A stretch of DNA of 64,000 nt, taken from the NCBI GenBank assembly GCA_963840035.1, contig CAWIXE010000002.1:896001-960000 (forward strand), in the 5' to 3' direction. Origin of the DNA: a candidate division FCPU426 bacterium (GTDB taxonomy: Bacteria > Oederibacteriota > PGYV01 > Palsa-1178). The notes below the pieces were generated by a model. The model had not been told where the DNA came from and searched no databases. It saw only the letters and a list, made by a program, of their open reading frames with translations. This document shows, one piece after another, positions 31,636 through 50,284 of the stretch; the first letter of the stretch is position 1, and every line of letters begins with the position of its first letter. The position numbers and the translations under genes were made by a program.

Positions 31636-31859
31636 CTTACTCCCTGGGTATTTACCCCTACGCCTAAAATAAGACTTTAATGAACAGAATTATTACCTTT
31701 TACATTATCAAACAATTAACTTTAACATACCTTTTCAAATAGTTCTAGTACTTGTTCAAATTCCCAACACCGTGCCTTGACTCAAGACATTATACTAAAT
31801 TTCATTATATTTTATTAGTATTATATTTATAATTGCATAAATAACGCACATTTATTACT

Positions 31860-32645
31860 TTAAATTCGTTCTGTCACCCATTTTATTATTTCGTCTGTTG
31901 CGTCAACAACAAACTCCTGCCCCTTATCAGCGGCTTTAAAGTAACCTTTCTGCCAATTCTTATCCGTATGGTAGCTCATGCCCTTGAAATATTCCGGCAG
32001 GTCCCAATGTGTTTTCAATTCCCCTTTCTTCGTCAATTCCACACCTTCATGATATTTAATAGGTCCCGCGCCTAGAAGTTTCGCATTCAGCGAAAGGTTT
32101 TCACTTGCCACATAAAGAGTATTGTTCTTCTTATATTGCCCCGCGTTGACCACATGTGGATGATCTGCATAGCATTCATCCGCTTTTTCACCATCCCCGA
32201 GCCTGATAATCCTGCCAACCTGGAGATACCCAAATATCGCATGAAAACCGTATTTGTCCTCCTCAAACTCCGGCTTCCCATTGTTCCACTTAGCATGCTG
32301 AAACCACCCAAAAAATAAAAACAAATCCCCTTCTTTTACTCCCTGATTCCGAAGATGCCCCTGAGCCGCATCACACTGCCCAAACGCCGGCAGCCAGCCT
32401 GGAGCTCTTTTGATTGCATCCTTACGTATATCAGGGTCAAGATGGCAGTAGTTTTCGATTTTGGTGTTTGATTTCAGGGATTTAATGATACCCCAGTACG
32501 TTTGACCTTTATATGAAATATCATCGTATGTAAGACTATCTTTAGAAGGAACCGGCATTGAAATCATGTCTTTTCTGTCAAATATAGGGCTCGGCATCTC
32601 ACCATACTGTGAGTCAAATCCTTTGCGGCTCAGTATAATTTTCAT
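31860..32645 (-). CDS. Nmad3 (nucleotide modification-associated domain 3) family protein
   Basis: MKIILSRKGFDS.YG..PSPI, CHLDPD, AFGQ..AAQGHL, GDLFLFFGWF, IFGYLQVG, GQEFV. Confidence 0.8.
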   Translation of the reverse strand: MKIILSRKGFDSQYGEMPSPIFDRKDMISMPVPSKDSLTYDDISYKGQTYWGIIKSLKSNTKIENYCHLDPDIRKDAIKRAPGWLPAFGQCDAAQGHLRNQGVKEGDLFLFFGWFQHAKWNNGKPEFEEDKYGFHAIFGYLQVGRIIRLGDGEKADECYADHPHVVNAGQYKKNNTLYVASENLSLNAKLLGAGPIKYHEGVELTKKGELKTHWDLPEYFKGMSYHTDKNWQKGYFKAADKGQEFVVDATDEIIKWVTERI

Positions 32646-33217
32646 TTCAAAAATTTAAAAATTAAGTACAATTTGTTTTCAAGGATATGTTTTTCAAATG
32701 GCACAGGAGTCTTTTTTTCAGACCCTCTCGTTAAAAATATTTCTTTTGGCTTAATTTTATTAAAGGAAAAGTAGAATTGGCTTTCTTTTTTTCCTTTCTT
32801 TGTTTTTAAGCTATTTATGAACTTGCCCATTTCTTTATCAGTAAAAACAATCATTCTGTTGTGAATCCACTTATCTGGTTTTCTGCTTTTATTTAAAGTT
32901 TTTCTTTTTGAATATTCTTCATACACACCAAAAAGAATATAAAAATCAGCCCTTCCAACAACATGCTTAATATTTCCGAACCAAAAATTCGTATCATATT
33001 TATGTTTGCCCGTAGGAATGTGATCCCACGATCTAGAAGCTTTAACTTGAATCGTTGCGCTTTTTTTTGATTTGTTGCTATAAATTAGCAAATCAAAACC
33101 TTTTTGCTGCCTGCTCATAGGTACAAGCAAAGCAAAACCCTTGTTTTTTGGAAATACATTCTGAAGCTCTTCGGCGACCTTATACTCTGAATATGGAAGT
33201 GTAAAAATGTTCTCCAT
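32642..33217 (-). CDS. Putative PD-(D/E)xK (restriction-endonuclease-like) protein
   Basis: SEYKVAE...GFDLLI...TIQVKAS pattern; ATGA overlap with the Nmad3 gene. Confidence 0.6.
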   Translation of the reverse strand: MENIFTLPYSEYKVAEELQNVFPKNKGFALLVPMSRQQKGFDLLIYSNKSKKSATIQVKASRSWDHIPTGKHKYDTNFWFGNIKHVVGRADFYILFGVYEEYSKRKTLNKSRKPDKWIHNRMIVFTDKEMGKFINSLKTKKGKKESQFYFSFNKIKPKEIFLTRGSEKKTPVPFEKHILENKLYLIFKFLK

Positions 33218-33281
33218 TTTTATTCTCCTCGTTTGCATAAATTAATCAGCGTAATTAAATATACGAATTAAAAATACTATT

Positions 33282-33827
33282 TTATTTGCCTATTATTACA
33301 GTGCTTGCTACTGTTGAAATAAAAATTATAGTAAAAAATAAACCCAATAACGCTTGAAATGCAGCTATTACTTCAATCAAATTTTTAGCTGGTTTTGTCC
33401 TGTTATATCCAAACGTTGTTATTGTTTGAACGCTGAAGAGCACATATTGAAGCTCGGCATTCCATGTGGTTGATTTCATTATTTTATTTTCGAATTTCAA
33501 AGAACCGGGAATATGCCACTCAATTATTCCATATAAAAACGCAAAAAGAAAAATAAACAAAAAATAATAGATGAGTAAATATGTCAATCCCAGACTCAAT
33601 GGTTGTTTTATTGTAGTTAAAACCAAACTCCAAATAAAAGTTATTGCTACCAGAATCCATAACGCAGAAGTAACATGGTCAATGAAACTATTTTTTTTAA
33701 AGTATCCCTTGCCATTTCTTGTGTCTTTAATTCCAAAAAAAGATAAAATGTAATAAAAAACAATGTAAACAGTGCAAGCAATTGTAACATTTCTGGGGTT
33801 TCCTATGAATTCTATAACATGATTCAC
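33282..33827 (-). CDS. Ion-channel-like membrane protein (Ion_trans_2-type pore)
   Basis: TM helices around FSVQTITTFGYN, a variant of the TTxGYG selectivity filter. Confidence 0.7.
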   Translation of the reverse strand: MNHVIEFIGNPRNVTIACTVYIVFYYILSFFGIKDTRNGKGYFKKNSFIDHVTSALWILVAITFIWSLVLTTIKQPLSLGLTYLLIYYFLFIFLFAFLYGIIEWHIPGSLKFENKIMKSTTWNAELQYVLFSVQTITTFGYNRTKPAKNLIEVIAAFQALLGLFFTIIFISTVASTVIIGK

Positions 33828-33967
33828 GAATCACCTCCTTATATAAAATCCCCAACACCGTGCCTTGACAATTGACTTTATTCAAATAACCGCCTCATTT
33901 TATTGATCACATTCATATTTCATTGTATATAACAATATTCATCATTCCTCTCAAATTACACCTTTAC

Positions 33968-34471
33968 TTACTTCAACTTTTTTATTTGATTTAATGCCTT
34001 TTTACAACCGATATTATTGGCTGTATTTAAATCTTTTTTTGCATTATCAATTTGGTCTATAATCACATAACATGCGGCTCTTAGTATATAAACATCACAG
34101 AACGAATTATCTAGTTCAAGTGATTTACTACAATCTTTAATAGCATCATCATATTTTTTTATGCCAAACTCCGCAGAGGCTTTTCCGTAATAAGCTACCG
34201 GATCATTTGGGTTAAGTTTGATTGCCTTAAGGCTATCTTCAATCATACCTTTATTATCACCAACACGCATTTTCGCAAAGCAGCGCCTATCAAACGTTCG
34301 GTAATTTGATGGGTCTATCTCAATTGCTTTTGAATAAAACTCTATCGCTTTTTTAAAGTTCCCGTTTGATGCTTGTTTATCGCCTTTATCAATATATGTG
34401 TCTGCGCTTATTGCCAATATAAATGTAATCGATAACATTGAAAGAATTATCAATAACACGTTTTTTTTCAT
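33968..34471 (-). CDS. Secreted TPR protein
   Basis: GGAGGAG RBS, MKKNVLLII signal peptide, TPR units (KAIEIDPSN, KAIKLNPND). Confidence 0.82.
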   Translation of the reverse strand: MKKNVLLIILSMLSITFILAISADTYIDKGDKQASNGNFKKAIEFYSKAIEIDPSNYRTFDRRCFAKMRVGDNKGMIEDSLKAIKLNPNDPVAYYGKASAEFGIKKYDDAIKDCSKSLELDNSFCDVYILRAACYVIIDQIDNAKKDLNTANNIGCKKALNQIKKLK

Positions 34472-34542
34472 TTCTCCTCCGGAATCAAATTTATTAAAAA
34501 ACTTCCCAACACCGTGCCTTGACAATTGACATTGTACCAGTT

Positions 34543-34731
34543 TCATCTTAATTTTATTAGCGTTTTATCTCCCAGTTTGTGAATAAGGCTTTCAATACGT
34601 TGTTTTATGACCTTGTCTTGTGCCGCTTCTGCTTCCAGTTTGTTTATTGCCTTACTTACCGCTTTGTGGGTTATGGCAAACATTTCCGCTACTTCCTTTA
34701 ATCTTAATCCGGTTTGGCTTCTTATCAGTGA
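34543..34731 (-). pseudogene. 3' remnant of a probable Y1/REP-associated transposase (C-terminal HTH)
   Basis: Hand translation SLIRSQTGLRLKEVAEMFAITHKAVSKAINKLEAEAAQDKVIKQRIESL...KLR*; no start codon; 5' side cut by a family C element; followed by TGTCAATTGTCAAGGCACGGTG. Confidence 0.6.
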
Positions 34732-34835
34732 AAATGGTACCAGACCTCGAGTTAATAGTTAATACATAACTTTTTTAACTGCTGAACCAGACTTTCTTTT
34801 GTCAAATATTAACTCGGGGGCCGGTTCCATTTTTT
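34731..34835. mobile_element. ~100-bp MITE/REPIN-like element (family C)
   Basis: AAAATGGTACCAGACCTCGAGTTAATA ... TATTAACTCGGGGGCCGGTTCCATTTT. Confidence 0.6.
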
Positions 34836-34849
34836 CCAATTATCTTATA

Positions 34850-36691
34850 TTATGGCCCTGGCGGAGAAAACCATACTTCATCGCTGTTGCCCGTTGCGTT
34901 TTCTCCTCCTATGCACCAAATTTTTGGGCCCGAGCCTGCATCATATATAAGCGCAAGGCTCCTGTATCTGTGCCCAAGTGTTGCGTTATTCGTTGCTTTC
35001 CACCAGTTTTTTCCGTCTGAGGAAGCCCACGCGTCGGCATATCCATTCAGCCCGCCTGTTCCTCCAGAAACCCATATCATATTATTATATACCCAGCTTA
35101 AATGGCCTCTCCTGGGGCCAAAGGGCGCTGATGCTGTGGCGCATTGCCAGTTCACACCGTCTGACGATGACCAGACATCATTTAATTCATTTCCTCCGGT
35201 TCCCATCCCTCCTATGACCCACATTTTCAGCCCCGTGCCGTCGTCAAAAACGACGCTTGAGTGCATCTGCCTCGGCGGGAATGCCGCGGAGGCGTTCGCG
35301 CATGTAAATGTAATCCCGTCGGATGACGACCATACATCGTTAAGATATAGATTCACACTGCCTTCGCCGGCTATGACCCATATTTTATTGTTAAAGACAA
35401 GGCACGTGTGGTCAAATCTTCCCTCAAATCCGCCGTTATGCGTTGAGCAGCTCCATGCCGCGCCATCCGTGGAATACCACACGTCGTTCCTTATGTCTGC
35501 ACTTCCGGCAAAACCGCCGATGAGCCACATCTTCTCGCCGCTTCCCGGGTCAAAAGCCACGCAGCCCGCGCCCCATCTGCCATGGGCCGCGGTGTAGGTC
35601 GTCGACGCGTACCAGTTGGTCCCGTCGGAGGAATAAATAACGTCATTTCTGATAGTGCCTACATAACCGCTTACGGCCCACATCTTTCCGTCGTATACCG
35701 TGCCAGTATGCCAGTACCTGCCGGCAAACGTCGTTCCCGAAGCTGACTGCGCCCAGTATGTTCCCGGACCAAATGTCGGTGTTATTGACGCGGTTGGTGA
35801 TATAGTGGACGTGTTCGTGGAAGTCGGGGTGGCCGTCTTTGTAAGTGTTACCGATTTTGTATTCGTAAATGTCGGTGATATGGACCATGTGGGCGATATC
35901 GTATGCGTGCATGATATGGTATATGTCCCGGTAATAGTGGGCGTCGCCGTACTCGTACCGGGATCATTGTATTTTACATTCACGCCTTTGCTTATGAGAT
36001 AAGGAATGTCCGTGTGAAGCGCCTTATAGCTCAGAGTGTTTCCCCTCAGGTCGACTACAGAGCTCGGGCCCAATCCCCCGGCATCGCAATTCTGTACGAT
36101 GGCGTCTATGTCCGTTATGTTGCTGCTGCCGAGGTCCAGATGGAAAAGTCCGGTCAGTCCCGCTATAGGATCAAGGCTGTTTATGCCCAGGGTGTTCCTG
36201 TATAAATTCATCCATGTGAGTCCGGTCATCCCGCTAATGGCATCTATGTTCAGGGGCACAGTGTTATAGTATATAAGGAGTTCGGTTAATTTCGGGAAAT
36301 ACTGCACGCCTTCAAGATTATTGACAGCCTTGCTGACTATGAAAAGCACCGTAAGGTCCTGGGACTCTTCCCTGTAAATATCCCCGGTGGGCTTTGATAA
36401 GGTCAGCCTTATTTGGGACTCCAGCACTGGGTCGGGGATATTGATGCGAACGTATGTGGGCGTAACGGTCGGGGACATTGACGCGGTTGGCAGCAGCGTG
36501 GAAGTCCTTGTTGCCGTGTTTGAGGGCGTGACGGTTTTCGATGATGTAGGTATGGGCGTGGATGTGGATGTAAAAGAAACCGTGGGATCAGGGCTTGCAA
36601 AAACAGACGGCCCCACGGGGTGTCTTTTCGAACACGACATCATGCATTGCATGATCAGGGCCAGAAAAATAATAAAATATTTTTTTTTCAA
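34850..36691 (-). CDS. Lipoprotein: Thr stalk + internalin-like LRR + Thr stalk + Kelch-like beta-propeller
   Basis: MSCSK lipobox; IPDPVLESQIR and LRR; repeated K(M/I)W.IGG...NDVWSSSDG; likely TTG start at 36691. Confidence 0.78.
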   Translation of the reverse strand: MKKKYFIIFLALIMQCMMSCSKRHPVGPSVFASPDPTVSFTSTSTPIPTSSKTVTPSNTATRTSTLLPTASMSPTVTPTYVRINIPDPVLESQIRLTLSKPTGDIYREESQDLTVLFIVSKAVNNLEGVQYFPKLTELLIYYNTVPLNIDAISGMTGLTWMNLYRNTLGINSLDPIAGLTGLFHLDLGSSNITDIDAIVQNCDAGGLGPSSVVDLRGNTLSYKALHTDIPYLISKGVNVKYNDPGTSTATPTITGTYTISCTHTISPTWSISPTFTNTKSVTLTKTATPTSTNTSTISPTASITPTFGPGTYWAQSASGTTFAGRYWHTGTVYDGKMWAVSGYVGTIRNDVIYSSDGTNWYASTTYTAAHGRWGAGCVAFDPGSGEKMWLIGGFAGSADIRNDVWYSTDGAAWSCSTHNGGFEGRFDHTCLVFNNKIWVIAGEGSVNLYLNDVWSSSDGITFTCANASAAFPPRQMHSSVVFDDGTGLKMWVIGGMGTGGNELNDVWSSSDGVNWQCATASAPFGPRRGHLSWVYNNMIWVSGGTGGLNGYADAWASSDGKNWWKATNNATLGHRYRSLALIYDAGSGPKIWCIGGENATGNSDEVWFSPPGP

Positions 36692-36900
36692 AAATGCCGC
36701 CTTCCTTTGTGTAATAAAAGAATCCACAACACGTGCCTTGACAATTGACATTAATCAAATAAACGCCTTATTTTATTAACCCCACTTGTATTTCTTCGTA
36801 AATAATCACTATTTATCGTCCCTCTCTAATTCCACCATCGCGCGATACTCTACCAACTAAGTTACCGCCCCTTCCAAACTAATGCCGCAGGGCATATAGA

Positions 36901-37137
36901 CTATTTCTTAACGAAAACCAGCATATTAAAATATATCGTGGTAGCTTTTGCCCCAAGTAACGCCCAGATACATCCCGGGTTCTGAGTAACTGCTATGTTT
37001 TCCATAGAGTGAAATTCCCAGTTGTCTTTAGCTTCCAGATTGATAAGGTCCGCAAAAGACCTGACAGCCCCGTCAAAAGACCCGTTCTTTCCCAATACTA
37101 ATTCTTTTGGTGCCGGTACACATTTATACTGCGCCAT
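36901..37137 (-). CDS. Small DUF4177-like protein
   Basis: YKCV...LINLEAKDNWEF...LVFVK pattern; GGGGG RBS. Confidence 0.6.
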   Translation of the reverse strand: MAQYKCVPAPKELVLGKNGSFDGAVRSFADLINLEAKDNWEFHSMENIAVTQNPGCIWALLGAKATTIYFNMLVFVKK

Positions 37138-37372
37138 ATTCCCCCCCATACTTTTTTACGTTATTTAAATTCTCCTGAGCTTTCTAAAACATTCATTACA
37201 TCTTTCAGCCCTTGTTATACTCATGATGCCCTGCGGCATTATTATTTCCCTATTATCCCGCAAGAGTCGGCCGCCATCTCGGCATACGGCTCTTTGCATC
37301 TCGCCTTATATTAAGAATTTAAGTAAATACCTTATACTAAGTCATCATCAGGGCACAAATTATCAGCGTGTT

Positions 37373-40165
37373 TTATATAGCGTCTTTAAGTTCGTTTTTT
37401 ATTTTTTCAGCTCTTTTATCGCCTAATTCCAAAGCTTTTGACGCGTCTTTAAGGGCGCCTGCTTTATCCCCGAGTTTTAACTTTACTTCAGCCAGGTAGT
37501 AGTATACTTCTCCGTCTTTCAGCATGGTTACAAGGGCTGTTTCCAGGTCTTTTTTAGCTTTTCCATAATCACCTTTTTTGTAATACATCATGCCCCTGCC
37601 TTTAAAGGTAATATCCGATTTTGGCTGCATGTAAAAGGCTGTGTCAAAATCCTTATTTGCGGCGTTGTAGTCGCCCATCTGGGTATATGCTATTCCCCTG
37701 TATGAATAACCTATGCACGCCTGCGGGAAACCTTTGATCACGGCTTCGAAATCTTTGACCGCGCCTTTATAATCACCCATTGTTATCCTGAGGTTTCCGC
37801 GAGTCAGATAAGCCGAAGTATATTTGGGGTTCAGTTCTATCGCTTTATCAAGGTCCATCAGGGCCTCTTTATTGTTTGCAAGCGCTATTTTGGCTGTTGC
37901 GCGGTAATTGTAGTAAGTATAATCTGCCGGATTGTCCTTTAAGAATAAATCACAGTCCCTGATGGCTCCGGCATAATTACCGGAATACATTTTATCAAAT
38001 AGCAGCTGCAGGGGCGTTTTTGCTTTTCCGGTCCTTTGGTCTATGGCGCTGTCCGGTAATTTCTTTTCCCTTTTTGCGAGTCCCAGCCATATCTTTGCTT
38101 CTTTATATCCGCCTTCACCCCAGACATCATACACGGAATTATCGCCTATTGCCTTAAAACATTTAATAGCCTCTTTTTTCATTTTCTTATCGACATAATA
38201 CTTCGCAAGCTCGTTCCAGGCTTCCCAGTTGTGTTCATCCGCCTTTATGAGGTCGTTTATGGCTTTTAGCTTCATCTTTATCACTGCCGGGTTCCTGGTT
38301 ATCTTTTCCTTGGCATGATCCGTGGCCTGTCCGTTGAGGTCCTGGCTTATGGCCGCGAGCACCAGATTTGGATATAGGGCAGCCAGATCGGGATTACCCT
38401 GCGGGATTACTTTTTTCGCGTCAGCAAGCGCTTTATCCCTGTTTCCGGTCAGTGACATCCAGAAAAAGTAATCTTCCCAGTTTTTGATATCCATGGGTTT
38501 GCGCCCGAAATACAGGAGCATGATATTCTTGTAATCTTTGTAATATGGCGATGATTTTACCGCGTCCGCGAAGTTATCCCTTGCGATCTGATTGCCGTCA
38601 AATTCATACGAACCGCTTGCGCGGAAACTGTCCTGGGCAATCTCACTGATAAGGAAAGGACACTTGTTATAAAACTGCTTATAAAGCCCCTCAATCTCGG
38701 CTATACTCCCGTGCCATTTTGGCTGCAGATAGTTGGCAAAGTTCAGGTAAGCGGCGGAGTCGTATGGATTTAAGCCGATTGACGTGCTAAAAGCATCATG
38801 CATTTCCAGTTTATCAATCCCTGCCGCCAGACCGGAGATCATCAGATTATTCCATGTCCAGCCGTCCCCGGGAGCGGTTTTTGTGGCCCGGCGGGAGGCG
38901 TTTAATCCAAAGTTGATGCGCCGTTCGATCTCCGCCCACTTTTTGGATTCAACAGTATTTGCGTAACCGTTGCCTCTCAAGTCCCAGGCCCAGTTTATAT
39001 ATGTATCCGACAGCAGCATCCACGCATCCTGATTTTCCGGATGTATTTTAGTCCATGCTTCGGCAAGCTCGATGGCTTCACTGTTATATTTTGATTTGCT
39101 GAGTATTTTGACGGCTGACTTGTAAAGATAGACATTATTATTGTCATTTAGAAGCTGATTTATTAAGGCTTTTGCCGGTTCCGCGTCGTATATAGGATTT
39201 GAAATACTCGCTTTTATCTCTTCATAAATTGTAAAAGGCGACTTTTCAGCGGTATTGTTGATTTTGTTTACCGCTATCCAGGACCCACCCTGATTCCTGT
39301 CTGCGGCTGTCCACTGCCATCTGCTTTTCAGGAATGGATTATCCGGTTCCTTTTCGGACATTTTATCCACACCACAGGCGATTGCCGGCCATGCCCGAAG
39401 TATGTGCTCTATGCGGGCGCTTTTCAGGAAATTATCTTCGTTTAAGAACAAAGTCTTTGAAAAATATTCCTTTTGTTGCTGTTCAAGTTTTGCTTCAGTC
39501 CATAAAAAATAACACTCCGCGGCCCACTCAGGCGCTTTGTGCACTTCACCAACAGGAAATTTTTTCCTGTAATAACCGTCGATTTTGCCTCCCCAAAAAT
39601 GCAGGGCTATTTCATATTCATTGTTCAGCTTTTTTATGGTGCCTTCGCCAAAATGTCTTCCTTTAAAACGCATCGGCAACTGTTCCCTGTATACCTGTTG
39701 TATAGGTTTTCTCAGCGGATCAAACAGCGCCAGATTCTGGAATAAATAGCCCACATCAGGTATGCTCATGTTAAAACCAGGCGTATAAGAAGCCCTGATC
39801 ATAGCCAGATAACTTATAAATGAACCAAGCGGCGTTAAGCCGCTGTCCTCGACATTAGTAAGTGGAAATATAAGCGGGCAAGGCGTCAATTCTCTTGAAG
39901 AAGAAACCAGTTTTTTTATAAGTGCACTAATTTCGGTATGAGGTTTCATTGCTTTGGCCTGCATCTCGGCAATCTGTTTTTTAATTGCAAAAAAACCGGA
40001 AATCTTTCCGCCGAATAACATAATCAGTGTCAGTCCCGATAAAATAACAACGGATAATATTATAATGGGGAGTTTTGCCCCGGAAGAATTCTTCCACACA
40101 GGCTGAAGCTGTCCATCTGTATTATTATTTGAACCATTGCCGGAGCTATTATTCATCAATTCCAC
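37373..40165 (-). CDS. Membrane-anchored DUF4034-like + TPR protein
   Basis: TM helix; YINWAWDLRGNGYANTV and LQPKWHGS; C-terminal TPRs. Confidence 0.75.
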   Translation of the reverse strand: MELMNNSSGNGSNNNTDGQLQPVWKNSSGAKLPIIILSVVILSGLTLIMLFGGKISGFFAIKKQIAEMQAKAMKPHTEISALIKKLVSSSRELTPCPLIFPLTNVEDSGLTPLGSFISYLAMIRASYTPGFNMSIPDVGYLFQNLALFDPLRKPIQQVYREQLPMRFKGRHFGEGTIKKLNNEYEIALHFWGGKIDGYYRKKFPVGEVHKAPEWAAECYFLWTEAKLEQQQKEYFSKTLFLNEDNFLKSARIEHILRAWPAIACGVDKMSEKEPDNPFLKSRWQWTAADRNQGGSWIAVNKINNTAEKSPFTIYEEIKASISNPIYDAEPAKALINQLLNDNNNVYLYKSAVKILSKSKYNSEAIELAEAWTKIHPENQDAWMLLSDTYINWAWDLRGNGYANTVESKKWAEIERRINFGLNASRRATKTAPGDGWTWNNLMISGLAAGIDKLEMHDAFSTSIGLNPYDSAAYLNFANYLQPKWHGSIAEIEGLYKQFYNKCPFLISEIAQDSFRASGSYEFDGNQIARDNFADAVKSSPYYKDYKNIMLLYFGRKPMDIKNWEDYFFWMSLTGNRDKALADAKKVIPQGNPDLAALYPNLVLAAISQDLNGQATDHAKEKITRNPAVIKMKLKAINDLIKADEHNWEAWNELAKYYVDKKMKKEAIKCFKAIGDNSVYDVWGEGGYKEAKIWLGLAKREKKLPDSAIDQRTGKAKTPLQLLFDKMYSGNYAGAIRDCDLFLKDNPADYTYYNYRATAKIALANNKEALMDLDKAIELNPKYTSAYLTRGNLRITMGDYKGAVKDFEAVIKGFPQACIGYSYRGIAYTQMGDYNAANKDFDTAFYMQPKSDITFKGRGMMYYKKGDYGKAKKDLETALVTMLKDGEVYYYLAEVKLKLGDKAGALKDASKALELGDKRAEKIKNELKDAI

Positions 40166-40486
40166 GTTCCCTCCTAATTTTATAAAAACTCCTCAACACC
40201 GTGCCTTGACAATTGACTTTATCCAAATAATCGCCTTATTTTACTGACCATACTACTATTTCTTCACAAATACGCACTATTTATCATTATTCCCCAAATC
40301 CATCCTATCCACGATGCTCTACCAACTGAGATACCGACCCGCTTTGCCATCCAAACCCCTGTCCTGGTCTATCTCCCTTGAACCCACAGTCCCTTCCAGG
40401 ACACCTGATTTCGAGTCAGGTACCATTCTACCCAATCCCGCTTAATTATCAACATACACGACGAAGCCTTGACGAAGTCACCGAAA

Positions 40487-41842: not shown

Positions 41843-42003
41843 AACACCCCCATTAATAGTATTTATAAACAGTTTGAACTTAAAATAAAAACCCCAATAC
41901 CGTGCCTTGACTCAAGTCTTTATTCAAATAAACGCATACTTTATCAGACATGTTGCTATTTCTTTGTAAACAAACATAAAATAAGCGTCGGGACCTGATT
42001 TAT

Positions 42004-42076: not shown

Positions 42077-42090
42077 GCCAGCCTTTCATA

Positions 42091-42495: not shown

Positions 42496-43106
42496 TTTAT
42501 CAGTTCCCCCATGTTCTTACCGTAAATCACCGTACCTGACCTGAATATTTCCATTACAAGCCCGTTCTTTTTCTTATAAGCGCCGCGGAATTCCGGGACG
42601 CTTAATATGGCCGGAGACAGCACATTACCGTATTTAGCGATAAAAAATCCGGATGCTTTGGATATCCTGTCGGCTGCCGCCTCTTTTTTATCAGCATCCC
42701 TGACCACCATCATGATGTCTATGTCGCTTTCCGCCGAATCTTTGCCTTTTGCCACGCTTCCGAAGAGTATTATGGATACAGTATCCGCTTTTGCCAGCCC
42801 TGCCAGGTCATGCGCAAGTTCTATCTTCAGATTTTCCTCAGCTTTAAATACCGGCTCGATTATGTCCCGCACATTAATATTGGACCTGTTTAAGGCATAA
42901 ACCGCGGTCCTGCCGCTTCCGTCCCTTTTTATGACGCCCAGCGCCGCCAGTTTCTTTAACTCAGAGGAGCAAGACTGGTGATTGATTCCCGCCATCCGCG
43001 CAAGAGCGCGGCCGGAATGAAGCCCCTGTGCCCCGCATAGCGCAGCGAGAAGCTTAATGGCTGTTTTATTTGAAAAAACACTTAATACCGCATTTTTAAA
43101 GATCAT
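42492..43106 (-). CDS. HTH + minimal nucleotidyltransferase (MNT) antitoxin
   Basis: SGRALARMAGI HTH; ILFGSVAKG....SDIDI; ATG 43106 after GGGG RBS. Confidence 0.85.
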   Translation of the reverse strand: MIFKNAVLSVFSNKTAIKLLAALCGAQGLHSGRALARMAGINHQSCSSELKKLAALGVIKRDGSGRTAVYALNRSNINVRDIIEPVFKAEENLKIELAHDLAGLAKADTVSIILFGSVAKGKDSAESDIDIMMVVRDADKKEAAADRISKASGFFIAKYGNVLSPAILSVPEFRGAYKKKNGLVMEIFRSGTVIYGKNMGELIK

Positions 43107-43126
43107 AGCCACCCCTGTCTTGTTTT

Positions 43127-43180
43127 GCAGACAATTGTCTGCTTTTATAGACAGTATATATCCTTTTACGCCCTTGTCAA
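43127..43180 (-). promoter_or_regulatory. Promoter and palindromic operator of the MNT-HEPN operon
   Basis: TTGACA-16 nt-TATACT on minus; perfect 16-bp palindrome GCAGACAATTGTCTGC at 43127-43142. Confidence 0.65.
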
Positions 43181-43344
43181 CATGAAAATTACAGCCAGAT
43201 AACACAATCCCCAACACCGTACCTTGACTCAAGAAATTATTCAAATAAACGTCTTATTTTATTGGCCATGTTGCTATTTCTGCGTAAATAAGCGAAAAAT
43301 ATGTGTCAAAAAGAACCGGCCTTTCCTAATAATTAAATAATGCT

Positions 43345-44121
43345 TTATTCACAATAAACAAAATACGCGCTTATCGACGTCGCGATGGGGTTCGTCGCGT
43401 ATGTGCCGCTTGCCGGCAAGCCTGCCGAAAAATCCGACCATGCAGAGCCGCACGCGTACAGCCCATTTCCGTCTGATATCAGGATAGACCCCTCAGCAAC
43501 CGTGCCTATCCAGTAGGTGCCGGCGTTTAATGTCGTCAAGGGGAAAACAAAGGCATTAAAAGAGTTATAAGTCATGGCAACGCCGGAAGTTTCGCTTATC
43601 AAAGCGCCCGGCGAGCCTGTGTTGTCCGCATATATCCCTATCCTGTACTGTTTTCCTATATTGCCGGCTTCATTTCCCACGCCGAACATGACGTAATTGA
43701 AAGTGATATCTGAAGCCAGCGTATAGCTGCTTATCAGCATGCAATTGGAGGCCCAGTTGTAGGAAACGGCCATATTCCCGATAAGGTTTCCGCCGCACAC
43801 CAGCGAAGTGGGAGTCACCGTGCAGGTGGCAGTCGCGGTCTCAGTGGCAGTCTCAGACACAGTGCCGGTGCATGTAGCCGAGCTTGTTTCCGTAATCGTA
43901 ATGGTTCCGGTGAGCGTGACGGTCATCGTCGGCGTTTGAGATGCTGTTGCGGTTTCCGTCATAGTCCCCGTTTGAATTATTGTCCGCGTCATGGTAACTG
44001 TAGCCGTCATTTCTCCCACCGCAGTGTTCTCCGGCCCTGACGGCGCTTTTTTATTGCATCCGTAACAAATCAACAAAAAAACTGCCAATAAGATCATGTT
44101 TTTTTCATACTTCCCCTCCAT
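43345..44121 (-). CDS. Thr-stalk lipoprotein (start ambiguous; possible slip in an A7 tract)
   Basis: YGCNKKAPSGP lipobox, Thr-rich stalk, C-terminal domain similar to that of 13772..14695. Confidence 0.68.
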   Translation of the reverse strand: MEGKYEKNMILLAVFLLICYGCNKKAPSGPENTAVGEMTATVTMTRTIIQTGTMTETATASQTPTMTVTLTGTITITETSSATCTGTVSETATETATATCTVTPTSLVCGGNLIGNMAVSYNWASNCMLISSYTLASDITFNYVMFGVGNEAGNIGKQYRIGIYADNTGSPGALISETSGVAMTYNSFNAFVFPLTTLNAGTYWIGTVAEGSILISDGNGLYACGSAWSDFSAGLPASGTYATNPIATSISAYFVYCE

Positions 44122-44191
44122 TTTATCCCGGTGTCCGGTATTAAATCAACAACACTGTGCCTTGACAATTGACTTTGCTCAAACGTAAAAA

Positions 44192-44375
44192 GGTGTCAGA
44201 CCTGATTCATGATTCTATCCTTCGACAGGCTCAGGATTATATTTCCTCTGCCGCAGGCATGCCTATCCCGCATAGTTATTTTATGGATTGTTTGAAAAGA
44301 ATCTTCCCGATAACCCCGGTTCACCATCACAGCTCCCAGTTTTCAGTCGTATGCCCCACAAGCCATCCTATCACA
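44192..44375. repeat. ~180-bp non-coding repeat, second copy at 51080-51255
   Basis: Shared CCTGATTCATGATTCTATCCTTCGACAGGCTCAGGATT, TCTGCCGCAGGCATGCCTATC, TTATGGATTGTTTGAAAAGAATCT and GTATGCCCCACAAGCCATCCTA. Confidence 0.8.
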
Positions 44376-44420
44376 ATATGCAGTACATTGCAACCAATAC
44401 CGGTTTGTCGTTATTGTACA

Positions 44421-45620
44421 CGTAAGTTGCAACAATTAAAACCCCACCCCAACCAACTGAGGCATTTTTCTTGTAAAGATTTGATTTGTCATTTGTGTCG
44501 CAGTTTCGTATCCAATTACCTTTCTGGGGTAATTGTTCATCCATGTCTCTATTTTCTTGATTTCCTTATTGCTTATAGGGCCTATGCTGGTTCCCTTGGG
44601 TATAAACCGTCTTATCATCCTGTTTGAGTTCTCGTTTGTACCTCTTTCACAGGAACAATAAGGGTGAGCAAAATATATATTTGTCCTTTTTTGTCCATTA
44701 AATACTTTGCTGGCTTCTAAAAACTCCCAGTTCAAGAACTCCGAGCCATTATCTGCCGTGATACTCTTAAAAATATCCTTAAAATTTTCTTTGTATTTCT
44801 GTTCCAACTTCGTCAGAACTCTGTCGACTTCTTCATTTGAGGCTGACTTCATTTTCTCAATTATTTCCTTTCTTGTCTTCCTTTCACTCAACGTCAACAA
44901 ACATTTTTTATCCCCTTGCTTTCCTTTGACGCAATCGATTTCCCAGTGACCGTATTCAGATCTTTCATTGGCCTCTTTTGGTCTGTCTTCTATGCTCTTG
45001 CAAAGTCTGTTCTTATCGAAAACACGCACTCTTTTGTTCTTGTTTTTCCTTTTGCGTTTCATCCATAAATCCTCATTGCTTATGCCATAAAAAACTTCTT
45101 TGCCTATATAGTTATAAATGGTTTTTGCACTTAAAGTCACAGTAAATTTCTGTTCTTTGTTCTTGATTGTTGCTGCAACCGCGGCCGGAGAGTATCGGTC
45201 TTTCTTTATGGTTAGTTCTATGTATTCAGCCAGTTTGTGGTCGCTGCCTATCTTTAATCCTGGTCCTTTGTGCTTTGACTTTTCATCATGTATTTCCTGG
45301 CCTATGTGCGCTTTATATACCTTCCGGGTTGTTAAATCACTATTCAACAGCTCAATCGTGCCTCTTTTTATCTCTCTGTTTATCGTCCTGTGATTTCTAC
45401 CCAACAAACGGCCTATCTCGCGACCTGTTAATTTCTTCTGCCGTAAAGCCTCAATCTTGTATCTTTCGCTTTCCCTTAAATACGTTCTTGTGGTACTATT
45501 TACTTGTCCCATCAGTCCAGCTCCTTTGGTTTATGTTTGGTCGCACTTACATAATACCATCAGTTGTTCTGTTGGGACTTTTTCTTTTTCTATGTGGGGT
45601 TTTTCATCTTACACTTTTTA
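44421..45620 (-). mobile_element. IS30-family insertion sequence (1200 bp) with 16-bp flanking direct repeats
   Basis: Imperfect IRs ending AAAACCCCA/TGGGGTTTT; TTGTCGTTATTGTACA at 44405-44420 and 45621-45636. Confidence 0.82.
44436..45512 (-). CDS. IS30-family DDE transposase
   Basis: LGRNHRTINREIKRG HTH, GHWEID, SITADNGSEF, ERGTNEN.NRMIRRFIPKG, NNYPRK. Confidence 0.95.
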   Translation of the reverse strand: MGQVNSTTRTYLRESERYKIEALRQKKLTGREIGRLLGRNHRTINREIKRGTIELLNSDLTTRKVYKAHIGQEIHDEKSKHKGPGLKIGSDHKLAEYIELTIKKDRYSPAAVAATIKNKEQKFTVTLSAKTIYNYIGKEVFYGISNEDLWMKRKRKNKNKRVRVFDKNRLCKSIEDRPKEANERSEYGHWEIDCVKGKQGDKKCLLTLSERKTRKEIIEKMKSASNEEVDRVLTKLEQKYKENFKDIFKSITADNGSEFLNWEFLEASKVFNGQKRTNIYFAHPYCSCERGTNENSNRMIRRFIPKGTSIGPISNKEIKKIETWMNNYPRKVIGYETATQMTNQIFTRKMPQLVGVGF

Positions 45621-45695
45621 TTGTCGTTATTGTACATAATAGTGTGTAAATTCATTTTGGCCGTTAATTATGTTTGTTTCCATTATAAACGGCTT

Positions 45696-45785
45696 CCCCC
45701 CTCTCCTCTTTAGGAGAGGGGCAGGGGTGAGGTGAAACCAATTGGCTTGTTCCCCTCACCCTACCCTCTCCCATATGGGAGAGGG
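45696..45785. repeat. Inverted pair of CCCTCTCC..GGAGAGGG / CCTCACCC palindromic repeats
   Basis: CCCTCTCCTCTTTAGGAGAGGGGCAGGGGTGAGG ... CCTCACCCTACCCTCTCCCATATGGGAGAGGG. Confidence 0.7.
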
Positions 45786-46006
45786 AAAAAATAACAAATC
45801 AGTTTACACACAATTAATGACAGTATCCGGTTTGTCGGGTGCCGGAGTCTGTATTCCCATTTCAATCCCTCGCGTCTTCTCAGAGGCCTCTCAGTCGAAC
45901 CGGGGTCGGGCTTTCACATTTTTCGAGTCAATTTTCCTATATAAATGTTGCCATATTATACAGGTTTCTGTATACTACATGCAAAATTACACCCTGGGAG
46001 ATCAAT

Positions 46007-46693
46007 ATGAAAAAAGTTCTCGTTCCTTTGTTTGTTTTATTCGTTGTTTTGCACGCCATTATCGCCGGATGCAAGAATAACCCGGCCCCTGCAGGCCCGT
46101 CCGGCCCTTCCGGCACGGCTACAGTAACGGCTACCTGCACTTTATCGCCTACAATTACATGCACGCCTTCAGCGTCAGCCACCGTTACCCCCACCATCAC
46201 CCCGAATAATTCAGCCGCGTCATTTGACTTTGAAAGCGGCACCCAGGGCTGGGGAAATACGGGATACGCGGCTGTCATAGACGAATCCCTGAGCACTGCC
46301 AGAGCGCACGGAGGCGCCTCGTCGATTATGATCAGCTGCAGTTTCACCAATACAAATTATATGGTTTCGCTTGTAAAGTATTTTTTCCCGGATTACTACA
46401 ACTTCAAGGGAAAGACTTTTTCAGCGTGGATATATGTCCCGGCAACGATGGGAATATTGTCCCCTTCGTACAGCACCCGGCTTTATATGTGCGACCTGAG
46501 CGGATGGCATTACGTGGTCGGCCCGGCGCTCACATCAACGGACATGTGGCAAAATATAACTATATCCGTCCCTGATGACATGGCCATGGATAATTATATT
46601 CAAAGGATAGAATTCTGGGTATGTAAATCATTACCGTCGACAACACCTGACTGGACCGGGATTATTTACCTGGATGATGTGTCTTGGTTTTAG
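46007..46693 (+). CDS. Thr-stalk lipoprotein with carbohydrate-binding-like domain
   Basis: GGGAG RBS, IAGCKNNPAP, FDFESGTQGW...SAWIYVP...IYLDDVSW. Confidence 0.75.
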   Translation: MKKVLVPLFVLFVVLHAIIAGCKNNPAPAGPSGPSGTATVTATCTLSPTITCTPSASATVTPTITPNNSAASFDFESGTQGWGNTGYAAVIDESLSTARAHGGASSIMISCSFTNTNYMVSLVKYFFPDYYNFKGKTFSAWIYVPATMGILSPSYSTRLYMCDLSGWHYVVGPALTSTDMWQNITISVPDDMAMDNYIQRIEFWVCKSLPSTTPDWTGIIYLDDVSWF

Positions 46694-47094
46694 TCCTCCA
46701 GAGCAATTAGCTAATTACGCGATACAGGACACGGCATCCAGTTTTACTTCCAGTCCGGCCTGCTTCTGCCTATGACATTATTGGACAATACAAGCGGTGT
46801 GTTTCCGTCAACGAGATTTCCAACACCGTGACTTGACAATTGGCATTGTTCAAATAAACGCCATATTTAATTGGCCACGCTGCTATTTCTTCGTAACTTT
46901 CCATACCAACACAATCCAACACCATACCCAACGAAATCTCCCTTTTCACAAATTGGGGTCCCCTTCGGAAAGCCCGGGGTTTTCTATACATTGGCAATCT
47001 CCCGAGCCTGTCGAAGGAGACCCAACCCCGTGAAACATTTCGCCGCCTCCAACCAATTCACAAACATACGATCGCCCCGGTTCCGTTTAAAACA

Positions 47095-47742
47095 TTATTT
47101 AAAATTATCCAGTATTTTTCCGCGCATATTTTTGTATTCCTCTTCCGTGATAACTTTTTTATCTTTCAGCGCTTTAAGGTCATTCAGTTTCTGCTCCAGA
47201 GGGGAGACGGATGTGGCTGCCTCAGGCTGACCGGCTGTGGACACGGCCTTTTGACGAAAATATTTGTCACACGATGTATTCTCAGATGGCGGCATCTTGC
47301 CCCATTTATCATGGAACTTTTCGTCCCCTCCCGACGCTTCTTCCGCAGTTTTACCCCCTGACAGAACTTTATATTCAAAATACCTCAGTATCTGTTCCTT
47401 ATCAAAGAGAAACCAGTACTCAGTCCCGCTATTCACGCTGTATTCCTCGGCTTCCGTCACTGATGACGCGTCAGAGAAATAATCCCCGTCCTTGTACTGT
47501 GTCTTGAAGCGCTGCTTTGTGACGGCTTTTAAGTTGCCAAATTCTATTGCTATCATGTCGCAGTTGCCTATGCTTCCGCCCGGCTGCGGGCAGCAGGTTC
47601 CGGACATGGCGGCCAGTACGTCCGCATATGTGGCAGTGCCCACCATAGGCTTGAACTTATCCTTTACCTTATGGTTTACAGTTGCACATCCGTTCAAAAG
47701 AAAAAAAGATATTGTTAAGACCAAAGCAAACATCCTTTTCAT
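47095..47742 (-). CDS. Lipoprotein with C-terminal SHOCT domain
   Basis: LNGC lipobox; LNDLKALKDKKVITEEEYKNMRGKIL. Confidence 0.78.
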   Translation of the reverse strand: MKRMFALVLTISFFLLNGCATVNHKVKDKFKPMVGTATYADVLAAMSGTCCPQPGGSIGNCDMIAIEFGNLKAVTKQRFKTQYKDGDYFSDASSVTEAEEYSVNSGTEYWFLFDKEQILRYFEYKVLSGGKTAEEASGGDEKFHDKWGKMPPSENTSCDKYFRQKAVSTAGQPEAATSVSPLEQKLNDLKALKDKKVITEEEYKNMRGKILDNFK

Positions 47743-47869
47743 CGCAAACCTCCCACACCTGACTATTTGTTTTTAATGATAAAGTCTCATCACTTCAACC
47801 CCACTGCTAAACCCATTAAAAATGGCGTCAGACAGAACCCGAATCATGAACATTTCGCGAAAGAGTCAG

Positions 47870-48568
47870 TTAGTAATCAAAGTCCACGCTGTCGACGTAA
47901 ATATTACCGCCTGTGACAACTGGCAGGCTTTCATTTCTTGCGAATATCCATATGCCTTCCAGGAGGGCTTGTGCGCCCGTCGGAGGTGGATTTGCGGCTG
48001 TGTCCCATACAAAGTGCTGCCATTCCCCGGTGCCGTCCGCATAGCCAAGGTTTTGCCAGTGTGTAAAAAATAAAAGCGTACTCATGCCTATGCCTATTTG
48101 GTATCCCGCCATGCCCGGCGGGCATTTGATGTAAAAGCTTATGACGTGTCCTGTCACATCTAAGCCGCCCGGATAATAACAATAAAATATTTCATCGCCT
48201 GTATCCACAGCGCTATACATGGATCCGGGCGGGTCAAAATAATTCCCGGAGGTATAACCCAGGCTATTCAACGAACTAAACGTCCAGTTGGGTAATTCCG
48301 CGGCCGATGAAAAAGAATAATCAGCGCCGGGTATAACCGCGGTAGCGGTTTCAAGCGGCGTGTTTGTATTTGTGGCTGTCGAAGTAGGCGTTGCCGTGGC
48401 GGTTATAGTGGAAGTAACCGTTATAGTAGCCGTATCAGCCGGAGTGGCAGTCATGGTTACAGTTGAGGAAGGTGTAATACCGGCCAAAGGATTAGCAGGA
48501 GACTTCTTCTTACATGAAACAAGAGATAAAGCAATAACCGCAACAAGTAAAAAAGCTAACTTTTTCAT
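47870..48568 (-). CDS. Thr-stalk lipoprotein with CBM-like domain
   Basis: LVSCKKKSPANP, Thr-rich stalk, ...IYVDSVDF. Confidence 0.75.
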   Translation of the reverse strand: MKKLAFLLVAVIALSLVSCKKKSPANPLAGITPSSTVTMTATPADTATITVTSTITATATPTSTATNTNTPLETATAVIPGADYSFSSAAELPNWTFSSLNSLGYTSGNYFDPPGSMYSAVDTGDEIFYCYYPGGLDVTGHVISFYIKCPPGMAGYQIGIGMSTLLFFTHWQNLGYADGTGEWQHFVWDTAANPPPTGAQALLEGIWIFARNESLPVVTGGNIYVDSVDFDY

Positions 48569-48920
48569 TTTTCCTCCGTTAATTTATATGTCATTCCCGC
48601 ACGAAAAATTGGTGTCAGTGGCTGATTCATGATTCTATTACAACAACACAAACAGACCTATCCCACAAAGCAACTAAATGGTTTGTCTGAAAAGAATTGT
48701 CCTCAAATATTAAATCCCGCATATCCCCTCCGCGCAGTCAGGAACCGAATTTAAGTATGTCTTATTATACCACTTCGGGGCTTATTTGTAATTGACCTTT
48801 TAGGCATTCCAGTCGGTCACACTGCCATCCAATTCACAAACCGGGGACAGTCCCCATTTTGTGAATTAGCTGTTAAAATCATTCACAAAAACAAATCTGT
48901 AAATTACCCCTGTTTTTGCT

Positions 48921-49130
48921 TTATGTCATGTCCGTTGTTTTTACCGTCCTGCCGGACTTGTCATATGTCACCCATTTGCCCGTCTGTTTACCATCCTTAA
49001 ACCATCCCTGCCGCATTTTGGAGCCGTCTTTCCTGTACCATTCCCAGTACCCGTGCTTTATGTCTTTTTCCAGGTTCCCTTTCGCATATATACTGCCATA
49101 CTTATTTGAGCGTGTAGTTAAATCAACTCC
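48921..49130 (-). pseudogene. 5'-truncated MORN-repeat/YwqK-like small gene
   Basis: Hand translation ..YGSIYAKGNLEKDIKHGYWEWYRKDGSKMRQGWFKDGKQTGKWVTYDKSG..*; no in-frame N-terminal start; begins at the family A copy at 49131. Confidence 0.6.
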
Positions 49131-49255
49131 CAGGACCGTGCCTCGACAATAGACATCGTCCCAAAATCCGCCTTATTTTATTGAACCAAGGTCTTTGAGC
49201 AAAAATGTGGCTGTCCCTTTTTTACTATAACAGGCCCGACGCTATTATTTTGACT

Positions 49256-49948
49256 TTATTTTTCTTTTGACAGCAATCCCTGCCCCAAAAAAACCGTTAC
49301 TGCCGCAAACATAAATATGGATAAAACCATTAAAATTATGGCCGCTTTTGGCGCAAACCACAGAAATGGTATGTTTGCTATGAACAGCAGTATGCTTCCG
49401 AAAACCGTATATGAAAACGCTTTCCATGTTTTAAAAAATGCAACGGCATATATAAAAAACGCTGTATAGGCAAGCGTAAATCCGGCTACGTCATATGACA
49501 AATACTTTAATGTTTCCACTTGCCTCAGATAAAGCATAACATCGGGAGAAATACCTGCCAAATGGCCCTGAAATCGATATATGCCGGCGCCAAAAACAGG
49601 CAAATTATTCATGATTTCCATAAGTAAAGATATCCCTAAAAGTGATTCCGCAAAAATCACAGCATAAGGATTTGAATCAAACTTCTTTACAGCAAACATA
49701 ACGCTGACCGGGAAGAATGAAAAAGCATATAACAATATCAGCATTGATTGAACCAAAGAAAAAACAGAATCTATCCCGGAACTATTTTGGGCCGCCGAAG
49801 GTATAAACCCTCCCGGGCTGACTTTTGGCATTACAACAATATAGGAAATACCATATCCGACAAGACCAATAACGGTAAGTATTCCAAGCATGTAAAAAAC
49901 TTTTTTAAACATTTCACTACGTTCGGCATTATTGTCCTTTGCTTTCAT
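49256..49948 (-). CDS. Hypothetical 6-TM membrane protein
   Basis: 230 aa, multiple hydrophobic helices, AGGAG RBS. Confidence 0.7.
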   Translation of the reverse strand: MKAKDNNAERSEMFKKVFYMLGILTVIGLVGYGISYIVVMPKVSPGGFIPSAAQNSSGIDSVFSLVQSMLILLYAFSFFPVSVMFAVKKFDSNPYAVIFAESLLGISLLMEIMNNLPVFGAGIYRFQGHLAGISPDVMLYLRQVETLKYLSYDVAGFTLAYTAFFIYAVAFFKTWKAFSYTVFGSILLFIANIPFLWFAPKAAIILMVLSIFMFAAVTVFLGQGLLSKEK

Positions 49949-50284
49949 TGCATCATGCTCCTTGAATAAATTGTCCGGCTTAAAGTAAAAAGTGTCCGGT
50001 GTCAGACCTTGCTTAGAGCATTAATAATTTTAATTTGCTTTGTATATACTCCAAACAGGGTCTGACGCCTTCCGCATTTGCGGCCCGCCTGCCGAAGGCA
50101 CCACAAGGGGGGGTGGCAATTTGCCCCCACCCTTTCAGAAATCCACAACACTGCCTTAAATCTCCAACACCGTGCCCTGACATTAGATATTCTAGCAAAA
50201 TCCGCTATATTTTATTGAAATTTATTCTAAATCTTATGTTACCCATAAAATTAATTTACAAGGTCCGATACCCACAATTTCATT

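Follow-up and report, generated by a model that had tools for sequence, protein, structure and literature searches.

Among described mobile elements, the closest to the one considered here are the TIRtrons, defined as RAYT-like genes set between long terminal inverted repeats (TIRs), with TIR families named in Stenotrophomonas and Koribacter that are moderately abundant and comprise many dimeric or clustered TIRs, single, dimeric and grouped copies having been counted (Di Nocera, De Gregorio and Rocco 2013, PMC3733652). Their transposases, which that paper names TIRYTs, are equated with subclass 2.1 of TnpA_REP, the largest of the TnpA_REP subclasses, whose members are long, carry a Bac_DnaA_C or helix-turn-helix (HTH) C-terminus and have no REPs nearby (Quentin et al. 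2018, PMC6006769). In the accessible parts of these two papers, neither the biochemistry nor the role of the TIRYTs is described; published work proposes that TIR and REP families are mobilised in trans. The locus under consideration is a 64-kb stretch of DNA, hereafter the window, located at C2:896001-960000 in the 3.46-Mb, three-contig (C1-C3) genome of a candidate division FCPU426 bacterium, where 11 minus-strand copies of a repeat of ~90 nt lie between accessory genes at 31.7-50.2 kb. From sequence comparison, these 11 repeats are identified as solo right ends of a TIRtron, i.e., ends without a transposase.

On sequence features, namely the Y1 domain, the DnaA_C-like tail, the long TIRs and a TIR repeat family (25 profile matches in the window genome and 18 core matches in G012, a genome of a sister family in the same order), the element belongs to the TIRtron/TIRYT kind published in 2013, i.e., TnpA_REP subclass 2.1. 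As in the TIRtrons described in the accessible parts of those papers, a RAYT-like Y1/HUH gene codes for ~320-335 aa, its product being extended at the C-terminus by a Bac_DnaA_C/HTH-like part, long TIRs are found instead of REP hairpins, the end of the gene adjoins or overlaps the 3' repeat, these TIRs form a moderately abundant repeat family of singles, dimers and groups, and several distinct TIRtrons coexist per genome, each with its own TIRs. At least five such subfamilies occur in the order of the window genome, and the ends of three of them in the window. Unlike many published TIRs, the tips of this TIR lack the GGGGWSAS motif, which two other subfamilies of the order approach (GGGGACGG and GGGGTCAA), and the host is an uncultured lineage outside the sampling of those papers. 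In the same parts, the published accounts contain neither one-ended co-oriented arrays, such as the right-only array of the window and the left-only arrays of the sister family, nor a right-end-specific outward -10 box, nor a placement at the junctions of defence or toxin-antitoxin modules.

The window repeat can be recognised as a right end because intact elements carry the window core at their inverted ends. Read 5' to 3' on the element strand, the right end is composed of the last ~13 transposase codons, a AATAAAATAA box that includes the stop codon, then a -10-like box and finally a ~35-nt terminal repeat, which closes with ...GTCAAGGCACGGTGTTGGGGATTY on the side of the downstream gene. 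The left end starts with the inverted core, followed by a AATAAAATA box that keeps the direction it has in the right end, and continues to the ribosome-binding site and start codon of the transposase, ~135 nt from the tip, a stretch where the transposase promoter would lie. The tips read ...GGTGTTGGGGATTY and TAAACTGACACC.... The original prediction, made from the window alone, had linked the repeat to an HUH/Y1 enzyme and suggested looking for full-length Y1 transposase genes ending in it; the link proved right and such genes, of 327 aa, were found at three places. In G012:C18, the intact element consists of a core at 48493(-), the 327-aa gene at 48611-49591 and a core at 49620(+), and the metagenome loci L093 and L096 have the same layout, with the window core inverted at both ends. 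These three copies, 86-94% identical to each other, lie in unrelated flanks, similarity ending just outside the inverted repeats, and TAA adjoins both sides of each as a candidate target-site duplication. The window genome itself harbours a variant intact copy (C2:583,756-584,913), in which two inverted profile matches (583756 and 584913), with their sharp ends outward, enclose a gene at C2:583882-584865; the final codons and stop of this gene (L-I-K-stop) are the AATAAAATAA box, the core variant is GTCACGACACGGACC, and the G012:C18 gene, bounded by the exact window core, is 62% identical to it. Miniature elements, made of a left and a right end with no gene, stand between co-oriented genes at C1:218314-218477, at three places in G012 and at one in G001; intact, miniature and solo forms of the element are all present. 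As for the window copy c34507, the transposase-like HTH remnant that had been noticed before it is indeed the C-terminus of a Y1 transposase: its ~55-75 codons match the C-terminus of the intact proteins in an alignment by eye and share 71% aa identity over 56 aa with a 141-aa open reading frame (ORF) of G006:C97 (L127 13355-13780), G006 belonging to the same family as the window genome and to another genus. This counterpart is an unbroken ORF of 141 aa; rather than debris, it may be a small HTH protein that has been domesticated. Tandem partial duplications of left tips, 28-140 nt apart, were also seen (L013 3639-3707 and 18689-18739; L086 9-118; L087 455-530; G000 C1:339667-339852).

The 327-aa protein passes the cut-off of 23 bits for PF01797 (Y1_Tnp) with 27.2 bits and reaches 67 bits with NF047646 (REP_Tyr_transpos), under the cut-off of 80. 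DnaA models cover its residues 205-319 (E=6.4e-9), and the match to PF08299 is weak (E=0.003, below cut-off). H-Y-H and Y119-x-H-x-N-P are invariant in all seven aligned proteins. In the window genome, PF01797 is found at eight loci, which correspond to five short RAYTs (162-222 aa) and three proteins of 321-332 aa that are 30-33% identical to one another.

That the window holds 11 copies in a single orientation, as originally claimed, is upheld by both an nhmmer profile and repeat-family searches, all copies being on the minus strand (Table 1). A 21-mer from the conserved end has seven window matches at ≤3 mismatches, all on the minus strand, when 0 are expected from 100 shuffles, and the repeat families D8 and D4 comprise 11 in-register copies of 45 nt (31754-50198) and 10 copies over 73 nt, respectively. 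With the profile built from the 11 window copies and counted at E<0.1, the genome contains 25 copies, 11 of them in the window and the other 14 spread over about ten loci elsewhere. A further, degenerate copy reported near 15151 does exist as a minus-strand match at 15165 (13 of 17 positions) but falls below the profile threshold. The window copies are ~60-90% alike; their core and AATAAAATA box are nearly invariant and the rest drifts. Similarity stops sharply on the gene-proximal side, as had been noticed, and in the alignment of the 11 copies the border lies at ...GGTGTTGGGGATTY, ~8-9 nt beyond the sequence first given; on the other side it is variable, again as described, usually extending ~85 nt and further in c36726, c40194 and c34507. 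In the island, right ends fill nearly the whole of each intergenic gap. The view that the repeat is not palindromic in the manner of attC agrees with the 0 pairs predicted in 14 aligned right ends (RNA energy parameters, top strand only), where no conserved hairpin appears, and with the absence of inverted copies in the window.

Table 1. Coordinates of the right ends and of other mapped features of the window (position 1 is its first nucleotide)
Feature	Position	Strand	Evidence and remarks
Solo right end c50165	50159..50236	-	nhmmer E=4.3e-14; outward box TGC-TAGAAT
Solo right end c49131, diverged core	49126..49206	-	nhmmer E=4.5e-15
Solo right end c46821	46816..46898	-	nhmmer E=2.3e-19
Solo right end c44150	44144..44230	-	nhmmer E=5.5e-11; inner part replaced by TIR2-subfamily end
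Solo right end c43212	43206..43294	-	nhmmer E=5.6e-20; 26 nt upstream of MNT-HEPN promoter
Solo right end c41895	41890..41975	-	nhmmer E=5.1e-16
Solo right end c40194	40189..40275	-	nhmmer E=8.4e-19; tRNA-like fragments just upstream
Solo right end c36726, 1-nt core deletion	36721..36805	-	nhmmer E=2.3e-17
Solo right end c34507	34502..34588	-	nhmmer E=5.4e-15; outward box TGG-TACAAT
Solo right end c33853	33847..33932	-	nhmmer E=2.8e-18; gene start 19 nt past tip
Solo right end c31765	31760..31846	-	nhmmer E=4.8e-13; outward box TATAAT; heads low-GC helicase-nuclease/restriction-modification unit
Degenerate core-like match	15149..15165	-	4 mismatches in 17; no nhmmer match above threshold
Transposase C-terminal (DnaA_C-like HTH) remnant	34573..34740	-	Translation; terminates in stop-codon region of c34507
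TIR5-subfamily inverted-repeat miniature element	34740..34850		Like those flanking MNT-HEPN in G006
TIR2-type end upstream of RNase_T gene preceding array	51075..51100	-	Second TIRtron subfamily
IS30-type insertion sequence in unit 3, outside element family	44411..45828	-	Pfam HTH_38 + rve

Regarding orientation, the sense strand of the transposase is the locally G-rich strand at 24 of the 25 ends of the genome, including 13 of the 14 outside the window (~ten loci), with C3:244779 as the sole exception; 88% of the 1973 ORFs of at least 200 aa lie on the G-rich strand as well, and nearly all genes of the window are on the minus strand. The uniform orientation of the window copies thus follows from a genome-wide strand rule and requires no mechanism specific to the array. 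Here, polarity of single-strand insertion and selection for co-transcription cannot be separated as the origin of this rule. For the flanking ORFs, copies from the window genome and all fetched loci were pooled and classed as right or left ends, 56 copies remaining unclassed and some of these being chance matches. With greedy ORF calling, the first ORF past the tip is co-oriented in 11 of 16 right-end-class copies; in the left-end class, 36 of 42 copies have there an ORF that runs the same way as the element and terminates at the tip or close to it, the distance being no more than 30 nt in about half. A first flank test, which accepted any open frame of 60 codons, gave 8 versus 9 for right ends and was dropped in favour of greedy calling, since frames antisense to real genes remain open.

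The right end is likely an outward promoter for the gene beyond its tip. At a fixed site 8 nt before TCAAGG, TAnnnT is present in nine of the 19 right-end-class copies, seven of these with a preceding TGn, against 2/53 in the left-end class, one misfiled window right end being among the 53; eight window copies entered this table, and three had diverged too far for inclusion. The intact elements (n=3) have TGn-CATAAT or TGn-CACAAT at the same site. The TGnTATAAT-like box is confined to right ends, where it points outwards, and left ends are without it. In most cases a co-oriented gene had been said to start 25-130 bp after the end. The first ORF of at least 60 aa begins 19-46 nt past the end in five of the 11 window copies; two further copies have the beginning of their longest ORF within the element (-7 and -12), or at +30 and +100 when the internal starts originally given, 36691 and 43106, are used; and the remaining four have their first ORF at +123, +210, +464 or none within 500 nt. 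The five close-start genes have a Shine-Dalgarno site of the GGAGG type and no space for another promoter, and with starts 19-46 nt past the tip their transcripts must begin in the end or upstream of it. A general promoter scan of the window returned 57 promoter-like sites versus 44.3 ± 7.1 in shuffles, without the right-end boxes because these lack a -35. Two other promoter readings of the core were discarded, namely a sigma-54/ECF promoter, on account of the spacing and a non-conserved -12 GC, and a sigma-70 pair in which TTGTCA would be the -35 and a T-rich box 17 nt further along its partner, where no A is conserved at -11. At the gathering threshold, Rfam has 0 matches anywhere in the 64-kb window.

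The distribution of the element was followed in 99 genomes of the phylum, 24 of the order of the window genome and 75 outside it, together with metagenome loci (L-numbers). At ≤1 mismatch, the core 18-mer occurs in 8/99 genomes, all within the order (8/24, against 0/75 outside; reversed-pattern control 0), where it is patchy, i.e., two of seven genomes in family f1 plus the window genome, 1/1 in f2, 1/1 in f8 and 3/4 in f6; 12 of the order's 24 genomes have homologues of the 327-aa protein. A metagenome scan gave 54 stretches, and ends could be classed as left or right in ~36 of the 51 loci examined. A broad contig scan, which did not return the copies of G012, yielded 13 stretches, nine in metagenome-assembled genomes labelled Spirochaetia, bacterium or uncultured bacterium, and four in Methylocystis, Eubacterium, Trebonia and Polyangiaceae that were taken as chance.

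Arrays with left ends only are found in G012 (L014, L013), in G022 (L072) and on the metagenome contigs L086, L087, L102 and L125, and contain Nmad3 and MNT-HEPN modules too. No fixed crossover point emerges from them, the breaks between G012 and G022 or L086 differing in position inside the left end. Two of these loci, at L087 3603 and L072 (G022:C107) 4932, match at 99.97% over 2935 nt and then lose all similarity no more than a few bases from the left tip of a different TIRtron, with a TIR beginning AGGGGACGGACC; this break is a very recent rearrangement or insertion at the tip. TIRtron-derived ends of several subfamilies stand at the junctions of defence or toxin-antitoxin modules in at least three genera. 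As for G006, it shares with the window, in another order, the MNT-HEPN module, the RNase_T gene (71% aa identity) and the transposase remnant with one right end, the only right end of the window's repeat family on that contig. Between the two genomes, MNT-HEPN has 80% nt identity and 74% and 90% aa identity; in G006, miniature elements from a different subfamily, which G002 has in intact form, lie on either side of it. The unit has its own promoter, TTGACA-16-TATACT, conserved in G006, and the homology begins at the -35 box of this promoter, 26 nt from the tip in the window and ~66 nt from the tip in G006. A perfect 16-nt palindrome, operator-like and conserved across genera, covers the leader (43100-43185; L127 (G006:C97) 7040-7105), and MNT-HEPN looks like an autoregulated toxin-antitoxin module moving with its control region.

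Beyond TIRtrons, the locus bears partial likeness to several known systems. IS91 and ISCR elements have Y2 HUH transposases and distinct ori and ter ends. Their logic, i.e., one fixed end with variable adjacent cargo, is that of the original prediction, whereas here the enzyme is of the Y1 kind with TIRs and the solo ends have no adjoining transposase; PF04986 (Y2_Tnp) has no match in the genome, the control genomes being silent likewise. The top strand of IS200/IS605 elements inserts on the lagging-strand template. With this family (IS608, ISDra2), the element has in common the Y1/HUH catalytic core and a strand polarity matching the lagging-strand-template bias given in the accessible part of PMC5027513, but its transposase is twice as long with an HTH tail, its repeats are inverted instead of being same-strand subterminal hairpins, and there is no TnpB. 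As in REP/BIME sequences with their RAYTs (REPtrons), a related Y1 transposase goes along with short non-coding derivatives that spread intergenically, cluster and are inverted around the gene; the ends are nonetheless non-palindromic TIRs of ~35 nt plus ~50 nt of subterminal sequence with no conserved hairpin, in tens of copies and not hundreds, and the gene lacks the GTAG-tagged REP hairpin flanks that the short RAYTs (162-222 aa) of the same genome possess. Integron arrays and CALINs are similar in that co-oriented, unrelated accessory modules are separated by one repeat family in a region shuffled between relatives, yet here neither IntI nor an attC fold is found, the units hold from one to more than four genes, some with their own promoters, and the repeat is a transposon end bearing a promoter-like box. 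The original statement that no integrase is present is correct for contig C2, the PF00589 recombinases of the genome being only at C1:572783, C1:707941 and C3:15002-15552, although the array does contain a transposase of another type, an IS30-type DDE transposase (HTH_38 + rve) at 44436-45512.

The explanation we favour, held at somewhat better than even confidence, is that the repeats are TIRtron solo right ends which likely spread, or were left behind, in the gaps between accessory genes and likely serve as outward promoters. According to it, the solo ends would be mobilised in trans by a TIRYT, the strand rule would result from single-strand insertion (lagging-strand template), from selection for co-transcription or from both, the TGnTATAAT-like box would fire outwards and serve the gene past the tip, and the cluster would have grown by local spread, itself assumed, in a tolerant, horizontally acquired island. 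Several observations weigh against this explanation. The genome has no intact cognate transposase, only the three paralogues at 30-33% identity, so that present-day mobilisation would need cross-recognition. Eleven of the 25 copies are packed in 18.5 kb of 3.46 Mb, a clustering left unexplained, and all seven AATTG-variant copies of the genome fall inside the window. The left-end core is absent from the window at up to 3 mismatches, and right-end-only solos are not obviously a product of simple whole-element decay. Regarding the promoter, a canonical TAnnnT is present in only three of the eight tabulated window copies, the others having AATAAT, AACAAT, GATAAA or AATAAA, no -35 consensus match was found in the right ends as read by eye, and MNT-HEPN, having a promoter of its own, indicates that not every unit needs an end. 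Finally, the core has been conserved while the remainder of the copies diverged, which suggests a continuing constraint. Such a constraint is not explained if the copies are inert fossils, i.e., whole or miniature elements inserted between genes that lost their left halves and have no present role, a reading we regard as unlikely. It would suit the lack of a cognate transposase, the divergence of the copies, the disruption of c44150 by another end with an IS30 element nearby, the weakness of the -10 box in most window copies and the transposase remnant upstream of c34507, but it would have to accommodate a core and a AATAAAATA box near-invariant despite drift elsewhere, a -10-like box specific to right ends (9/19 vs 2/53) and five genes with no space for another promoter. 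Moreover, 11 independent losses of the left half with no left end surviving in the window would be unparsimonious.

More ambitious is the proposal that the ends form an HUH cassette platform, where a TIRYT would cleave and rejoin like tips, excising and inserting circles made of a module plus an end, the array being a stack of captured modules; we hold it to be rather improbable, and the same low credence applies to its corollary that right would pair with right here and left with left in genus g9, in an integron-like function. One-ended co-oriented arrays with unrelated accessory cargo do recur, right-ended here and left-ended in G012, G022 and the metagenome contigs, where cargo kinds such as Nmad3 and MNT-HEPN are repeated; MNT-HEPN is bounded on both sides by TIRtron repeats in two genera, with differing subfamilies and module order; near-identical contigs break beside a left tip belonging to another TIRtron; about half of the left tips follow the preceding stop by 30 nt or less, and tandem duplication of tips is seen; and units 9-11 have a foreign composition. 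On the other hand, neither an excision product, an empty site or a circle junction nor a unit gained or lost as a whole was observed, comparison of G012 with G022 or L086 puts the breakpoints at differing positions within the left end, the homology of MNT-HEPN starts at its own -35 box and not at a tip, G006 is equally shuffled with a single right end of the family on its contig, the cognate transposase is absent and the copies are old (60-90% alike), the units, at 0.65-9.5 kb and in some cases with promoters of their own, do not resemble compact cassettes, and the contig has no integron integrase nor the repeat a conserved fold. Insertion sequences and miniature elements, besides, generally pile up in defence islands. 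The fixed site for one-ended, rolling-circle-like capture and stacking of genes put forward in the original prediction has no direct result in its support: the co-orientation is explained by the strand rule, the cognate transposase is missing and the copies are only 60-90% alike, while MNT-HEPN has its own promoter and ends of another subfamily in the relative, and break positions inside the left end vary. It is likewise improbable that TIRYT ends are an integrase-free, integron-like builder of the defence and toxin-antitoxin islands of the order, with the end doubling as promoter. Farthest from the data is a host regulatory site unrelated to mobile DNA, whether a shared promoter or operator or a sigma-54-type promoter, which we consider extremely improbable. 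The position upstream of genes, the resemblance by eye of GGCACG...TTGG to a -24/-12 promoter and an upstream near-palindrome, TATTT-N6-AAATA, could be read in that sense; the sequence, though, is the end of a transposase gene plus terminal repeat in intact elements, which is already contradictory, its distribution is patchy (8/24 in the order, 0/75 elsewhere in the phylum), left-end copies point at gene 3' ends, the -12 GC is not conserved (TTGG or TCGG) and the near-palindrome is transposase coding sequence. In the sigma-54 consensus, the spacing from GG to TTG is one base longer than in the core. With its intact, miniature and solo forms, distinguishable ends, right-end-specific outward box and strict strand rule, the locus is a case that can be dissected. 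If the ends only carry promoters, it would be a further instance of horizontally acquired genes being wired up by mobile promoters; if they also exchange modules, it would represent a new integrase-free route to defence islands.

The cargo of the island had been described as accessory, and Pfam agrees. It comprises a UvrD/PD-(D/E)XK helicase-nuclease with an N6_N4 methylase and a ResIII-S24 fusion after it, Nmad3 together with two partner proteins, two TPR proteins (a small one and one of 930 aa), a Kelch/LRR protein, the Polbeta-type nucleotidyltransferase and HEPN pair, a 451-aa familyless protein and several small familyless proteins. The units are 0.65-9.5 kb in size, and the GC content of units 9-11 (22.2-34.5 kb) is 31-35%, that of the genome being 47.2%. 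The block at 22296-31635, of ~31% GC, which encodes the UvrD/PD-(D/E)XK protein, the N6_N4 methylase, a 1239-aa ResIII/SWI2_SNF2 + S24 fusion and a 306-aa familyless protein and is adjoined by DUF4238 and RNase_H_2 proteins, looks like a defence island of foreign origin. The IS30-type element has three further genome copies with 97-100% identity; a piece of ~200 nt at its edge (45617-45834) exists in ~40 diverged copies genome-wide (73-92%) and is probably a miniature derivative. Minus-strand tRNA-like fragments, resembling D-arm and anticodon-arm, lie upstream of two right ends (40300-40450 and ~36800-36850) and may be relics of integration at tRNA genes; ARAGORN finds 0 tRNA genes in the window, and a tRNA as island anchor is not borne out.

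In the left part of the window, ends of the TIR2 subfamily were located at 7842-7871, 9066-9095, 11713-11742, 16072-16101 and 22219-22248, in addition to the one of Table 1, an intact TIR2 element being at C3:278093-279058. Of the five plus-strand copies, four have their tip 7-98 nt past the stop codon of a minus-strand gene, and the module junctions of the left window accordingly carry solos of the left-end type from another family. Tandem arrays with periods of 121 nt and 209 nt (11631-12777 and 56106-57032; also 2509-7762 and 58457-59573) are built of GTAG-type REP hairpins, i.e., GTAGAGACG...CGTCTC and TAGAGGGGGCAAGCCCCCTCTCTAC. Identical hairpins flank short RAYT genes at C1:7047-7565, C1:355676-356200 and C3:356464-357132, which makes the window arrays BIME/REPIN-like, with their likely mobilising enzymes present in the genome. 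The REP-rich left part also contains a HipA-type kinase gene (HipA_C + Couple_hipA; 5903-7000) and an AAA_14/DUF4143 ATPase (3706-4902).

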